Origin: an uncultured Alphaproteobacteria bacterium
Lineage (GTDB): Bacteria > Pseudomonadota > Alphaproteobacteria > Rs-D84
DNA: 64,000 nucleotides
Reading direction: 5' to 3'
NCBI GenBank assembly: GCA_934230415.1
Contig: CAKQEW010000001.1
Location: 12,258-76,257 of the forward strand
Part shown: in pieces, positions 48,539 through 58,695 of the stretch
How positions within the stretch are numbered: the first letter of the stretch is position 1
How the letters are laid out: each line of letters begins with the position of its first letter
Notes under the pieces: generated by a model
Database searches by the model: none
What the model was told of the DNA's origin: nothing
What the model saw: the letters and a program-made list of their open reading frames with translations, nothing else
Translations under genes and position numbers: made by a program

Positions 48539-49021
48539 ATGTATACAGCACAATATAATTCACCGATTGGCGTATTAACATTGGCGGCAACGCGTGATGC
48601 ATTATGCGGCCTGTGGATTTGTGGCCAGAAATATCATGGCACAACCGATGGTGCGGCGCGTGATACGGACAACATCGCATTGCGTCGTGCCATGCATTGG
48701 CTGGATGAATACTTTGCGGGCCGCGCCCCAGAAATCAATTTTAATATTAATCCCACAGGGACCGTATTTCAGCGGCGTGTATGGCATGAATTAAGCCTGA
48801 TTCCACACGGGCAAACCGTAACATATGGCGATATCGCACACCGCATCGGTTGCAAATCCGCGCGCGCGGTTGGTATGGCAATTGGCCACAACCCGATTTC
48901 AATTATAATCCCATGCCATCGCGTAATTGGCGCAAACGGCAAACTGACCGGATATGCCGGCGGAATAAAAACAAAAGAAAAATTATTAAAACTGGAACGC
49001 GGTGCTATGCGCGCCAAATAA
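48539..49021 (+). CDS. ogt: methylated-DNA--protein-cysteine methyltransferase
   Basis: Active-site IPCHRVIG motif. Confidence 0.85.
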   Translation: MYTAQYNSPIGVLTLAATRDALCGLWICGQKYHGTTDGAARDTDNIALRRAMHWLDEYFAGRAPEINFNINPTGTVFQRRVWHELSLIPHGQTVTYGDIAHRIGCKSARAVGMAIGHNPISIIIPCHRVIGANGKLTGYAGGIKTKEKLLKLERGAMRAK

Positions 49022-49706
49022 CCGACGCAAACATTGCATTTATGGCATTGCGCAGATTGTCATCATTAAAAAACTGGTCACGCTGGGCGGGCGTTGTACC
49101 ATGTTCATTATCCTCAAAATGTGGAATGTATTTCTGGATGGCAATTTTTGCCACACCACGGGCATTTAAATCGCGCGTTATTTCCATTAAATCCAGTTTT
49201 GTTACAAATCGCGGGTCGCATGTAATACGAACCTCATAATCCTTGCCGGTGGCCTGCCATATATCCAGACTGTGTATCATGCGGTCATGTGCGATATTTT
49301 GCCCCGCCAGCGCACCATATTTATCACGCGTTGTTTTATAATCCAATCCAATCCAATCAACCGTATCCGCCGCACGCTGTAAATTTTCGGGATAAAATCC
49401 GTTTGTATGCAGTCCGATTTTGAACCCCAGTTCACGTACGCGCCGCATATAATCAATTGCGGCATCACCCTGCATTAACGCCTCGCCCCCGGAAAAGACG
49501 ACCGCCTCTAACTTTCCAACGCGGTCGCGCAACCAATCCAGAACTTTGCCCGGGTCATATTCACCATCGCCAACATTCAACAAATGGGGATTGGAACAAT
49601 ACACGCACCGCAACGGACACCCGCGCAGGAACAGCACCGCCGCCAATTTCCCTGGATAATCAATTGTTGTGAACGGGACCAATCCCCCAATTTGAACGTC
49701 TGGCAT
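49005..49706 (-). CDS. nrdG: anaerobic ribonucleoside-triphosphate reductase activating protein (radical SAM)
   Basis: CxxxCxxC (CPLRCVYCSNP) radical-SAM cluster motif. Adjacent to nrdD. Confidence 0.85.
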   Translation of the reverse strand: MPDVQIGGLVPFTTIDYPGKLAAVLFLRGCPLRCVYCSNPHLLNVGDGEYDPGKVLDWLRDRVGKLEAVVFSGGEALMQGDAAIDYMRRVRELGFKIGLHTNGFYPENLQRAADTVDWIGLDYKTTRDKYGALAGQNIAHDRMIHSLDIWQATGKDYEVRITCDPRFVTKLDLMEITRDLNARGVAKIAIQKYIPHFEDNEHGTTPAQRDQFFNDDNLRNAINAMFASVIWRA

Positions 49707-49710
49707 TTTA

Positions 49711-49890
49711 TTATGCAGCCTTTTTCAACAATTCGCTGTGACGCAACCCAGTGGTCAGGCTGTTCGCCTCTGTGAATGTTTTTCTTTCACAGAATTCAGA
49801 ATACTTGCCAATGTTAAAACCAGACACTGGTCTGATAAATCCCATAGAACGCGAGAATACTTCACATGGTGTTCTTGTTGCTGCCTGCAT
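49711..49890 (-). CDS. small ORF (59 aa) resembling the detached glycyl-radical C-terminal segment of NrdD
   Basis: Manually translated as MQAATRTPCEVFSRSMGFIRPVSGFNIGKYSEFCERKTFTEANSLTTGLRHSELLKKAA. Strong GGGAGGA RBS. RSMGF...NIGK resembles the NrdD C-terminal RVCGY...NRGK glycine-radical region. Below the 60-aa ORF-track cutoff. Confidence 0.45.
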   Translation of the reverse strand: MQAATRTPCEVFSRSMGFIRPVSGFNIGKYSEFCERKTFTEANSLTTGLRHSELLKKAA

Positions 49891-49935
49891 AATTATTTCC
49901 TCCCTTTCGTTTATTTTTTGTAATGCATGGTTATT

Positions 49936-51975
49936 TTATTGTTCGTCTGTGCCATTTTGATTTGCGGCAATTTCCGCATCACATTTCGGACAGAATTCGT
50001 GACGTCCCGGCAAATATCCGTGTTTCGGACATATTGAAAACGTCGGGGTCAGCGTCATATACGGAATCTTGTAGTTTTCAAAGATTGTACGTACAATTTT
50101 CTGGGCGGCCTCGCCACTGGACACAGGTTCCCCCATGTACAGGTGCAACATTGTGCCACCGGTATATTTACGCTGCAGTTCTTCTTGGTGTTCCAGGGCG
50201 ACAAACGGATCGTCCGTGAAATTCACCGGCAATTGGGTTGAATTTGTATAATATGGCGCATCGTGCGTTCCTGCCGTGATGATGTCTGGGAAATTCTTGA
50301 CATCGGTCTTGGCAAAACGGTACGAGCAACCCTCGGCTGGTGTCGCCTCCAGATTATACAGGTTGCCGGTCTGTTCCTGGAAATTAGCCAGATTTTCACG
50401 AATAAAGTCCATCACATCCAGAACCAACTTCTTGCCCATTGGGGTCGCGATATTTTCACGGTCCCCTGTAAAATTACGTACCATTTCATTTGCGCCATTC
50501 ACACCAATGGTTGAAAAATGGTGGTTCCAATTCCCCAGGTAACGACGCGTAAATGGGTACAGGCCACGTTCCATGTTCTTGGAAATAATCTTACGCTTAA
50601 TTTCCAGCGAATCGCGTCCCAAATCCAGCAACCGTTTCAGTTCACGGAACAAACCATCGCGGTCACCCTTGTGCATATACCCCAAACGCGCCAGGTTAAT
50701 CGTAACCACGCCGATTGACCCTGTTTTTTCCGCGCTGCCGAACAGACCACCACCACGCTTTAACAATTCACGTACATCCAGACGCAGACGGCAACACATA
50801 GAACGCACATCCGTCGGATTCAGGTCAGAGTTTAAGAAATTCTGGAAATTCGGAATACCATACTTTGCCGCCAAATCAAACAATGGCTTTACATTCGGGT
50901 GTTCCCATGGGAAATCATCCGTGATGTTGTATGTCGGGATTGGGAATGTAAATGGACGTCCCTGGGCATCGCCTTCGGTCATAACCTCCAAAAACGCCTT
51001 GTTAATTGTGTCCATTTCTGCCTGCAGGTCACCATACGTAAAATCAACCTGCTTTTTACCAATAAATGGATGCTGGTCACGCAAATCCTTTGGACATGTC
51101 CAGTCAAATGTAAAATTGATAAACGGCGTCTGGGTTCCCCAACGGCATGGCACCGCACAGTTAAATATCAATGTCTGCATTGCGTTTTTAACATCCGCAT
51201 ACGACAGGTTATCAATTCTGACATATGGTGCCAAATACGTATCCACAGACGAGAACGCCTGGGCCCCCGCAAATTCATTCTGTAACGTACCCAAGAAATT
51301 CACCATGTGCGAAATCGCGGTCGCCATATGTTTGGCCGGTTCGCACTGCAGATATCCTGGGACACCATTGAATCCTTCGTACAGCAATTCGCGCAATGAC
51401 CATCCGGCACAATAGCCCGTCAGCCACCCCAGATCATGAATATGAATTGCGGCGTTCTTGTGTGCCTCTGCGATTTCACGCGGATACAGATTCAACCAAT
51501 ATTCCGCGGTCACACGTTCACTGGTGCGCAAAATCAGGCCACCAATTGAATATCCGATGTTTGCATTTTCCTTGATACGCCAATTTGACCCACCGACATA
51601 GCCTTCTATGACCTCTACTGCATCAACGTACGAATCGCGAATTTCACTGCGTTTCTGGCGATAAATAATATATGATTCGGCGGTCTTGTATGCATGGGCA
51701 TCCATCAGCATTTGAATAACAACATCTTGGATTTGTTCAACCGATGGAACCTTGTCCGCATATTCCGCATCCAGTTTATTCAGCACATTTTGTGTAACAA
51801 CTGCAATCTGGGAATCCTGGATTTCATGTGTAACTGCAACCGCCTTGGCAATCGCATCATAAATCTTTTTCGCATCAAACGGAACTGTTTCACCGCCGCG
51901 TTTTTGAACCGCCACCAGTTTTGTGGTCAGTGTTGGGATAACCTGTATTTTCGTTTCGTTCAATGTTTCAGACAT
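49936..51975 (-). CDS. nrdD: anaerobic ribonucleoside-triphosphate reductase (class III) large protein, ending after the zinc-ribbon
   Basis: ATP-cone N-terminus. Class III core with SMCCRL. Ends ...CPKHGYLPGRHEFCPKCDAEIAANQNGTDEQ with no RxxGY glycine-radical motif. Confidence 0.85.
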   Translation of the reverse strand: MSETLNETKIQVIPTLTTKLVAVQKRGGETVPFDAKKIYDAIAKAVAVTHEIQDSQIAVVTQNVLNKLDAEYADKVPSVEQIQDVVIQMLMDAHAYKTAESYIIYRQKRSEIRDSYVDAVEVIEGYVGGSNWRIKENANIGYSIGGLILRTSERVTAEYWLNLYPREIAEAHKNAAIHIHDLGWLTGYCAGWSLRELLYEGFNGVPGYLQCEPAKHMATAISHMVNFLGTLQNEFAGAQAFSSVDTYLAPYVRIDNLSYADVKNAMQTLIFNCAVPCRWGTQTPFINFTFDWTCPKDLRDQHPFIGKKQVDFTYGDLQAEMDTINKAFLEVMTEGDAQGRPFTFPIPTYNITDDFPWEHPNVKPLFDLAAKYGIPNFQNFLNSDLNPTDVRSMCCRLRLDVRELLKRGGGLFGSAEKTGSIGVVTINLARLGYMHKGDRDGLFRELKRLLDLGRDSLEIKRKIISKNMERGLYPFTRRYLGNWNHHFSTIGVNGANEMVRNFTGDRENIATPMGKKLVLDVMDFIRENLANFQEQTGNLYNLEATPAEGCSYRFAKTDVKNFPDIITAGTHDAPYYTNSTQLPVNFTDDPFVALEHQEELQRKYTGGTMLHLYMGEPVSSGEAAQKIVRTIFENYKIPYMTLTPTFSICPKHGYLPGRHEFCPKCDAEIAANQNGTDEQ

Positions 51976-52280
51976 TCATGACCCCTATTCTTTATAAAAT
52001 ACAACATATAGTGGTTATTTTTCTTGTTTAGTACCAATATATAGTTTTATAGGTTTTCCATCAACATTGAAAAGCATATTTTTTTTTATTTTTTACTTTA
52101 CTTTTTTTTATGGCGGTTTTCTGGGGGATTGCGGGCGATATGAATCGGTCTATCCGCATACTAAATATTTTTTTGTGCAAAGATTTTTTTCATATTTGTA
52201 TAAAAACGATTCGTTTTTAGGCAAAAAAACACAAAATATTGACACGAATCACGACAAAACATCTATATGTTGACAAAAAA

Positions 52281-52300
52281 ACACCCCGTACAGGGTGTTT
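52281..52300. terminator. Terminator after dnaA (acaccccgtacagggtgt flanked by A/T runs)
   Basis: Hairpin 20 bp after the dnaA stop. Confidence 0.5.
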
Positions 52301-57069: not shown

Positions 57070-58695
57070 TTAATTCAGTGGTGCGCCCCAATGCTGTTGG
57101 ATACTGCGTTCTGCATCCATTGGGCTGACCAATACCTGGGGCGTCAGGATAACAACCAATGTATCACGCGTTGCCGATGTTTCACGCGATCCCGACAGCG
57201 CCATAAAGTCTGGATCACCCAAGCCATAGCGCGTATCATTATTGGTCTGTTTTTCAAACCCAGATACAACCAACATCTGGCCAGATTCCATAATAACTTC
57301 CTGCATGAAACTGCGTTCTTCAACCTCTGGCAACTGTAATGTAACCTCGCCAATTGTCTGGGTTGACATTTTCAGCAATTCACGCACAGACATACGGAAC
57401 AGCAACAAAATCTTGCCATTTTCCAAAACATTCGGCAACAGCTGCATAGAGAAACCTGTTTCCAAATCGTCCTGGTCAACCGTGCTGGATTCAACCGTTG
57501 TGAAATTACGTGATTCAAAACGTTTGATATATCCAGTGGTCTTGGTGTTATTAACAGGTGCAACACGGTTGCTGCGTGTGGTCACCCCAACGTTTGTAAC
57601 CAATGATACCTTGCCCTGCTTTGCCAACGCCTCTATCAATGCGGCACTGCCTGCGGCGCGGGCCAACGAACCATTCTTTATCTGGTCTGGGGTATATGCA
57701 CCGGCAACCGTTGACGAACCTTCTGTATGTGTGGCACCGGTCAATGCCGACACAGAATTTGACAGAACTGCGATGTTCATAGAACTGGCCTCGGTCGTGG
57801 CCAAATTATTCTTTGGATTCGCAACAATGTTCAAACCCGACGCACTGTTAATCGCCGCTGCCAGATTCAATCCAAACGCCGAATCATTTGATATAGATAC
57901 CTGCAAAACCTTGACATCAATTGTCACCAACTGGGACAGACGTTTGTTCTGGCGCGTAATATAATCACCAACACGTGCCAAAACCGATGGTGGCGCCGTC
58001 ACAGTAATTGTGCCCAAGCTGCGTGATACAGTGAAATCAGAATTATCTGATTTGCCGATAATCCCTGAAATCGCCTTTTCAATTTCATCCCATTCTTTTA
58101 ATGTGGATTCCAATGCGACCTGGTTTCCATCATCTGTCTGAACCGCGGTCTGGTATGAAACATCGGTTCCCAACGCATATAATGTAAATGTACGTGTTTC
58201 TGTTTCGTAAAACACAATGGATGTTTTGTCATAGTACCACAACAAATCCAAATCCGTTGCGACCTGGGACAACAGGCCAGACAATTTACCAGTATACGCG
58301 ACATTAATCGTCTTTTTCAATTTCTCAGAATTAACCTGGCTGTCAATCTTGACCGGGATGCCGGTAATAGAATGAATATCGTTTGCCAATACCTGTAACG
58401 TAACCGGTTCATTTAATAAAATTGTAACCCCAGTATCCGTTTCAAATTCAGATGGCAAGTTATTACGATGTTCCAACACGGTTGACTTGTTCCCCAACCA
58501 AACCCCTTCTGACATAGAAACGGTATCGCCACTGGCAACCTTGGCGCGTGGATTTTTCGCCATTTCAAACGCATCATATGCATTAATAAAATCCTGGTCC
58601 ACCGACGCGGCCACCTTGGCAGATTCGCGCACCGTACATCCCGCCAGTGCAACCGTCGCCGCGGCCAACATTAACATTCTTATTGTCTTTGTCAT
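57070..58695 (-). CDS. lipoprotein secretin of type IVb-pilus type (PilN/TcpC/BfpB-like)
   Basis: Lipobox LAGC. C-terminal secretin domain (VTIDVKVLQVS..., ...GQMLVVSGFEKQT...RDTLVVILTPQVL). Confidence 0.7.
   Translation of the reverse strand: MTKTIRMLMLAAATVALAGCTVRESAKVAASVDQDFINAYDAFEMAKNPRAKVASGDTVSMSEGVWLGNKSTVLEHRNNLPSEFETDTGVTILLNEPVTLQVLANDIHSITGIPVKIDSQVNSEKLKKTINVAYTGKLSGLLSQVATDLDLLWYYDKTSIVFYETETRTFTLYALGTDVSYQTAVQTDDGNQVALESTLKEWDEIEKAISGIIGKSDNSDFTVSRSLGTITVTAPPSVLARVGDYITRQNKRLSQLVTIDVKVLQVSISNDSAFGLNLAAAINSASGLNIVANPKNNLATTEASSMNIAVLSNSVSALTGATHTEGSSTVAGAYTPDQIKNGSLARAAGSAALIEALAKQGKVSLVTNVGVTTRSNRVAPVNNTKTTGYIKRFESRNFTTVESSTVDQDDLETGFSMQLLPNVLENGKILLLFRMSVRELLKMSTQTIGEVTLQLPEVEERSFMQEVIMESGQMLVVSGFEKQTNNDTRYGLGDPDFMALSGSRETSATRDTLVVILTPQVLVSPMDAERSIQQHWGAPLN

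Follow-up and report, generated by a model that had tools for sequence, protein, structure and literature searches.

To our knowledge, the NrdD enzymes of other families and the other glycyl-radical enzymes are all single chains whose own C-terminus holds the radical glycine, and the only exception that we know of is the rescue of damaged pyruvate formate-lyase by GrcA. Here we analyzed a stretch of 64,000 nucleotides (nt) of contig CAKQEW010000001.1 from an uncultured alphaproteobacterium (the window), which carries nrdD, a small open reading frame (ORF) and nrdG in succession. The closest described systems are the NrdD enzymes of Thermotoga maritima (PDB 4COI/4U3E) and Neisseria bacilliformis, which share with this locus PF13597, NF006126, the zinc motif, the R-x-x-G-[YF] radical motif, an adjacent NrdG and, as judged by eye, an SCCR-like double-cysteine stretch (PMC4493059). 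In those enzymes, the radical loop is the C-terminus of the same chain, whereas in the window it is a separate protein of 59 amino acids (aa). In the NrdD of Prevotella copri, the glycyl-radical domain consists of the zinc site, then the buried glycine loop and then a surface tail, and is dynamic (PMC11226230). In the window, the break interrupts this canonical domain after the zinc site and before the buried glycine loop. We consider it highly probable that the operon encodes a class III ribonucleotide reductase, the anaerobic glycyl-radical type, made of two polypeptides, one of which supplies the glycyl-radical loop in trans.

Other described systems resemble the locus in part. Escherichia coli GrcA (YfiD) and phage T4 Y06I are also small stand-alone proteins that bear a radical glycine and presumably dock in the barrel. 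However, GrcA is homologous to the C-terminus of pyruvate formate-lyase, whereas the small ORF in the window is homologous to NrdD; in addition, GrcA coexists with a complete enzyme and acts only after oxygen damage. Because the adjacent large ORF lacks the glycine loop, the small protein appears to be obligatory rather than spare. Pseudomonas aeruginosa NrdJa/NrdJb is likewise a reductase encoded in two consecutive ORFs with a separate C-terminal module (PMC4520616, PMC4009431), but it is a class II, B12-dependent enzyme. Small chains that bind a large glycyl-radical subunit are also found in benzylsuccinate synthase (beta and gamma), HPAD (gamma) and MASS (beta, gamma and delta), but these accessory subunits are iron-sulfur or rubredoxin-like proteins without a radical glycine (PMC13450708). 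A review of June 2026 describes spare-part proteins only for formate lyases and regards those of other glycyl-radical enzymes as 'yet to be determined' (PMC13450708).

The initial annotation of this DNA had called the arrangement unusual. This holds for the literature that could be searched, Crona et al. included, where no description of a split class III enzyme was found. In the literature searched, split NrdJ is called the "unique" split reductase, Burnim et al. (2022) treated split domains as distinct to class II, and the splitting of phage nrdD by introns and homing endonucleases is a different phenomenon (PMC3653736). It does not hold for genomes, in which the split is the rule in a large NrdD subfamily, as described below, and is already found in RefSeq. 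Pseudomonas mini-proteins, such as WP_003174546.1 (51 aa), are listed there as 'anaerobic ribonucleoside-triphosphate reductase' or 'oxidoreductase', and the mini-proteins of the window's clade are annotated 'hypothetical protein'. The split class III reductase is apparently present in the databases but unrecognized. P. aeruginosa PA1920, which we take to be about 675 aa long, would be consistent with a split in that species.

On the minus strand, the three genes follow one another head to tail (Table 1), with 4 nt between the stop codon of the small ORF and the start of nrdG, and NrdG matched TIGR02495 (NrdG2) with 175 bits (cut-off, 131). The coordinates, read directly, agreed with the initial annotation that the small ORF begins 45 bp downstream of the large ORF with a GGGAGGA ribosome-binding site, between nrdD and nrdG. 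In contrast, its use of the 45-bp gap as an argument against a simple error failed, because the two ORFs share a frame and are one TAA apart. The junction reads ...GTDEQ*NNHALQKINEREEIIMQAATRTPCEVFSRSMGF..., that is, one TAA followed by 15 sense codons. A single TAA in a shared frame makes a nonsense mutation or readthrough the trivial explanation, which had to be excluded by means of other genomes. If a single nonsense change (e.g., CAA to TAA) had cut a normal nrdD, or if the assembly were wrong, the downstream ORF would be a remnant, and the shared frame with a single TAA is what such an event would leave. Similarly, programmed readthrough or frameshifting could join the ORFs into a canonical NrdD chain, and the in-frame arrangement of the window, also seen in 16 of the 75 split loci identified below, is in keeping with this.

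Table 1. Coordinates of the nrdD operon and of the region upstream of it in the window
Feature	Positions	Strand	Remarks
nrdG	49005-49706	minus	233 aa; radical-SAM activase; TIGR02495, Radical_SAM and Fer4_12 matches
Small ORF	49711-49890	minus	59 aa; ATG start; glycyl-radical loop and C-terminal tail
Gly17 codon	49840-49842	minus	Predicted radical glycine, in small ORF
Spacer	49891-49935	minus	45 nt; carries the Shine-Dalgarno sequence; sequence read directly
Shine-Dalgarno sequence GGGAGGA	49898-49904	minus	7 nt 5' of the small-ORF ATG
nrdD large ORF	49936-51975	minus	679 aa; ATP-cone, catalytic barrel, zinc motif
TAA ending the large ORF	49936-49938	minus	In frame with the small ORF (three-frame translation of 49690-50060)
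NrdR-box-like palindromes	52032-52047, 51999-52014	minus	16 nt each; 5' of nrdD; 4 and 3 mismatches to ACACWATATATWGTGT
Terminator-like hairpin and T-run	52274-52299		After dnaA
dnaA	52321-53595	minus	Directly upstream of the nrdD operon; TIGR00362, 244 bits, below the curated cut-off of 344

The large ORF showed the features of a class III catalytic subunit up to the zinc site. It matched the Pfam model NRDD (PF13597) over positions 1 to 529 of 562 (E = 3.8e-171), PF03477 (ATP-cone; E = 1.8e-20) and NCBIfam NF006126 over profile positions 4 to 656 of 684 (1037 bits; cut-off, 548). The best families were all class III, and models of class II reductases matched in the ATP-cone alone. A zinc motif, C649-x2-H652...C662-x2-C665 (...CPKHGY...CPKC), lies 14 residues from the end of the ORF; it is invariant in our alignment A2, is present in at least 70 loci and is predicted to bind metal. 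As the initial annotation had stated, the ORF ends after this motif without a glycyl-radical loop: its coverage of PF13597 stops at position 529, and the radical-glycine motif is found only in trans. Among the best 120 homologues listed for the large ORF, identities were 88 to 91% and lengths 676 to 713 aa. In the four of these whose sequences were read, the chain ended directly after CPKCDAEIAANQN, and a 713-aa homologue differed from its 682-aa counterpart by an N-terminal extension only.

The stretch RSMCCRL at residues 391 to 397 (Cys394/Cys395) is also invariant in alignment A2. Compared by eye, without residue-level alignment, it looks like the double-cysteine motif SCCR that the enzymes of T. 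maritima and N. bacilliformis carry (PMC4493059, PMC9669993). This likeness suggests an enzyme of the thioredoxin-dependent type, with thioredoxin as the putative reductant.

The small ORF supplies the missing end of the model. It matched PF13597 at positions 531 to 562 of 562, a match that is weak when taken alone (E = 2e-4), and its loop reads R14-S-M-G17-F...R20-P21...N26-x-G28-K29. When the 67 C-terminal residues of the large ORF, followed by the small ORF, were searched against PDB sequences, no match was obtained; T. maritima NrdD came within reach only with a profile of small proteins. The profile of 46 small proteins aligned to residues 615 to 645 of that enzyme (EYMRIVGYLVPVSAFNK...), with Gly17 falling on Gly621, which is the radical glycine of T. 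maritima NrdD (PMC4493059). This match, together with that to the end of PF13597, confirmed the initial reading of RSMGF...NIGK as the C-terminal radical loop of NrdD. Since the large ORF aligned to T. maritima residues 101 to 609, the two ORFs together tile one canonical NrdD (101-609 plus 615-645), and the tiling by NCBIfam models agreed with that by Pfam.

In the alignment of these 46 diverse small proteins, R14, G17, P21, K29, E32 and R36 were invariant, and C9, R20, N26 and G28 were nearly so. PF13597 matched all 46 of them and PF01228 matched none; no Pfam or NCBIfam model is dedicated to the small proteins. The initial annotation had compared the small ORF, as a glycyl-radical subunit acting in trans, with YfiD/GrcA. 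The split is indeed selected and conserved, but the likeness to GrcA is functional only, without PF01228 homology.

The small protein is widespread as a stand-alone chain, conserved at about 50 to 90 aa. It had 272 close homologues of 57 to 92 aa, mostly from uncultured Alphaproteobacteria, and the identical 59-aa sequence was recorded on 10 contigs from several sources, which argues that the split is not an error of one assembly. Among 1.84 billion cluster representatives (clustering at 50% identity), 891 matched the small protein, and 146 of the 148 best representatives were short, started with M, V or L, showed the consensus ERQPCEVWTRVMGYHRPVSSFNIGKKGEF and had no zinc motif upstream. In nine genomes of the window's clade, the median ratio of nonsynonymous to synonymous substitution rates (dN/dS) of the small ORF was 0.09, with dS saturated. 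The small ORF is under purifying selection.

The initial annotation had also suggested looking for split nrdD in related genomes. A scan with the large-subunit alignment, using one genome per GTDB species, gave 80 loci with 54 to 86% NrdD identity; the glycine-loop ORF was located by a hidden Markov model (HMM), and the ORFs were then classified as split or fused. In all, 80 loci (79 related loci and the window) were classified, of which 75 were split and 5 were fused. Beyond these, one more locus was fused, three more were split by HMM, one was cut by the contig end and one had no glycine-loop ORF nearby. The closest named relatives of the window were 'Candidatus Enterousia' and rumen Alphaproteobacteria genomes. 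Split loci were also found in cultured organisms, namely Pseudomonas brassicacearum, P. fluvialis, Stutzerimonas stutzeri, Achromobacter sp. M1, Duganella, Thiobacillus denitrificans DSM 12475, Hydrogenophaga taeniospiralis and Ottowia massiliensis. A second sequence type (EVYSRIVGYLRPVQNWN, L005) was likewise split. The order nrdD, small ORF, nrdG was the same in L001-L004, and the order of truncated nrdD, small ORF and nrdG was seen in distant lineages, in one of them with an ATGA overlap. At one locus, L048 (a Holosporaceae metagenome-assembled genome, 271-2316), a 682-aa NrdD ends after CPKCD, and about 3 kb of same-strand sequence downstream contained no glycine-loop ORF; its small gene may lie elsewhere or have been lost. 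These results showed that the split, far from being a peculiarity of the window genome, prevails in a large NrdD subfamily and is conserved across dozens of bacterial lineages.

The junctions of the 75 split loci differed widely. The small ORF lay in relative frame 0, +1 or +2 at 16, 28 and 31 loci, respectively, and the gap from the large to the small ORF ranged from -32 to +298 nt, including ATGA start/stop overlaps. A GGAG-like Shine-Dalgarno motif was found 5' of nearly every chosen ATG, and several in-frame loci had more than one stop between the ORFs. Taken together, the varied frames and gaps, the Shine-Dalgarno motifs and the wide conservation exclude an assembly error, a recent pseudogene, and conserved readthrough or frameshifting as explanations of the pattern. 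A pseudogene or assembly error in the window is also at odds with the 10 independent contigs, with the small ORF's own Shine-Dalgarno sequence and low dN/dS, and with the 45-nt spacer, to which nothing in the short linkers of fused genes corresponds (e.g., CPECGGRCEVW); we regard this explanation as extremely improbable. Recoding would require a +1 or +2 shift at 59 of the 75 split loci and would have to work across variable gaps and multiple stops. No conserved slippery site or structure was apparent at the junctions; instead, the start codon and the Shine-Dalgarno motif were conserved. Joining of the ORFs by recoding is thus very unlikely.

Restoration of a single chain by split-intein trans-splicing or by intron-based RNA joining was also considered. 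Phage reductase genes are commonly split by introns and inteins (PMC3653736), and the small protein has a nearly invariant Cys close to its N-terminus. At the junction, 14 residues follow the zinc motif and 8 precede this Cys. Intein halves need far more residues than these, so that the tails are too short for them, and a spacer of 45 nt (-4 nt in L003) leaves no room for an intron. In addition, Rfam matched nothing at the junction, and Pfam matched NRDD only. Splicing at the protein or RNA level is therefore hardly conceivable, even less so than the explanations considered above.

Several further features of the small proteins were observed. Cys9 (49864-49866) is near-invariant, lies 8 residues before the radical glycine and stands in the motif P-C-E-V-[WFY]. 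Many small-subunit tails carry an extra Cys (..ESKCGLSK, ..EGRCALG and ..KCGCSK; L059, L082, L083 and L030). Cys9 and the tail Cys may form a redox relay for a thioredoxin-type enzyme. In the split loci, 18 of 74 small and 14 of 74 large subunits end in -AA, where an Ala frequency of 5 to 8% predicts less than 1%; the ending was noted in L006-L011, L029-L031, L037, L044, L058, L067, L074, L082 and L085. The small ORF in the window ends in ..KKAA* (49711-49716), and among 146 representative small proteins, 16 terminate in -AA or -AAE. This ending resembles the ssrA-type degradation signal ..LAA. Gene callers lengthen the small ORF to 78 to 92 aa in some genomes (L001, 4001-4273; L002, 4001-4267; P0014, P0015 and P0066). 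The extra upstream residues come from the 3' end of nrdD translated in a different frame, e.g., ISVQNVMLKSLLIK from ..FCPKCDAEIAAN.., and an internal ATG with a Shine-Dalgarno motif gives the conserved protein of 59 to 62 aa. The cluster at 90% identity to which the proteins of 59 to 62 aa belong also contains NrdG proteins of 233 aa and has a representative of 233 aa; this is probably a clustering artifact of the sequence collection.

The fused loci (L023, L036, L047, L064, L071 and L081) were scattered among the split ones in a neighbor-joining tree. Four of them had very short linkers, such as the one quoted above. In L081 and L023, the linkers still look like the tail of a large subunit fused to the N-terminus of a small one, which hints at re-fusion. 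The tree is crude, being built from identity distances without support values, and fails to separate one ancient fission followed by re-fusions from repeated fissions. Since, as far as we know, all other NrdD families and glycyl-radical enzymes consist of one chain, fission probably took place close to the base of this subfamily. Charge complementarity between the large-subunit tail and the small-subunit N-terminus was weak (basic and acidic in 35 of 72 pairs) and was not used as evidence.

Expression of the small ORF was examined in the supplementary master table of a proteogenomic study of P. stutzeri ATCC 14405. The table lists three adjacent genes: a 672-aa 'ribonucleoside triphosphate reductase' (Pstu14405_04650) comes first, a 51-aa 'oxidoreductase' (Pstu14405_04655, WP_003279708.1) follows 74 nt downstream in a different frame, and NrdG (Pstu14405_04660) overlaps the end of the 51-aa ORF. 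The 51-aa protein is listed with 28 shotgun peptide-spectrum matches (PSMs), 59% coverage, three unique peptides and 113 digest-free PSMs. The main text of the study is silent on this protein. These peptides confirm that the small ORF is translated in an organism of the split type.

The presence of a complete NrdD elsewhere in the genome was weighed as a further alternative. The small protein would then rescue a damaged enzyme in the manner of GrcA, and the truncated large ORF would be otherwise used or useless. GrcA/YfiD provides a precedent with pyruvate formate-lyase (PMC13450708), and the window covers 64 kb of the genome. However, the large ORF keeps the ATP-cone, the barrel, the double-cysteine stretch and the zinc motif at 88 to 91% identity across the clade and always adjoins the small ORF and nrdG, and no other glycyl-radical-like ORF was found within the window. 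A mere spare part is therefore about as improbable as recoding.

For the two-polypeptide reductase, the following mechanism is proposed. The 679-aa chain would provide the ATP-cone for allostery, the barrel with the double-cysteine stretch and the zinc motif, and the 59-aa chain, made from its own ribosome-binding site, would provide the radical-glycine loop with Gly17 and the C-terminal tail. NrdG would take the hydrogen atom from Gly17, maybe while the peptide is free or held by a loose tether, since the glycine loop can meet its activase only outside the barrel; activation would be easier with a free loop. Once activated, the loop would take up the place next to the cysteine loop in the barrel that it has in single-chain NrdD. 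Because oxygen cuts glycyl-radical proteins at the glycine that bears the radical, the split enzyme would lose only a 6.6-kDa peptide. The 77-kDa subunit could then be re-armed, in a built-in version of the action of GrcA on pyruvate formate-lyase. We infer that the chains assemble, that activation occurs in trans and that the split brings an advantage in repair.

Cheap replacement after oxygen damage is offered as a tentative selective reason for the split, one that we hold to be somewhat less probable than its opposite. The same reserve applies to a bolder proposal in which the radical loop is a consumable, exchangeable mini-subunit that NrdG activates off the enzyme, that docks and that is replaced after cleavage by oxygen: it is possible, but we lean against it. 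Under this exchange proposal, the C-terminal Ala-Ala could possibly serve as a degradation signal for the spent peptide. If true, this would be the first spare-part system for an enzyme other than pyruvate formate-lyase and would account for the ability of organisms with frequent exposure to oxygen to keep a class III reductase. The subfamily concerned is found in many facultative and denitrifying members of the Proteobacteria, Pseudomonas among them, and in gut Alphaproteobacteria.

Several points weigh against the two-polypeptide enzyme and its proposed function. The assembly of the chains and the radical on Gly17 are deduced here from sequence, and the repair advantage is hypothetical. In the window genome, some readthrough product may be formed, as only one TAA interrupts the common frame of the two ORFs, and a second complete nrdD may lie outside the 64 kb examined. 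In addition, digest-free PSMs were obtained for the 672-aa NrdD as well, so that the P. stutzeri peptides by themselves are no proof of a separate polypeptide.

In most members of a large subfamily, genetically tractable Pseudomonas species among them, the glycine loop of an essential enzyme is encoded by a gene of its own. This makes it possible to test the action of the activase on a free radical-domain peptide in vivo, the entry of the loop into the barrel and repair by subunit exchange. It also matters for annotation, since nrdD of the split type looks truncated and the names given to the mini-ORF ('oxidoreductase', 'hypothetical protein' or the full enzyme name) are misleading. Pipelines, heterologous expression and phylogenetic surveys that use the large ORF alone miss an essential part.

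Upstream of nrdD, the two palindromes listed in Table 1 resemble the NrdR box, the consensus of which we take to be the sequence given there. Their start-to-start spacing of 33 nt was also found in L001, L002, L006-L008 and L011, and across the wider family the pair was present in only 18 of 59 loci. Judged by their sequence and position, the palindromes are likely the operator of the nrdD operon, with a putative regulatory role. The dnaA gene lies directly upstream of the operon, and a replication origin may be nearby. One tRNA gene, Pro-CGG (1157-1233), was the only Rfam match in the 64 kb. A gene for a PilN/secretin-like outer-membrane protein (57070-58695) lies 5 kb upstream of the operon.

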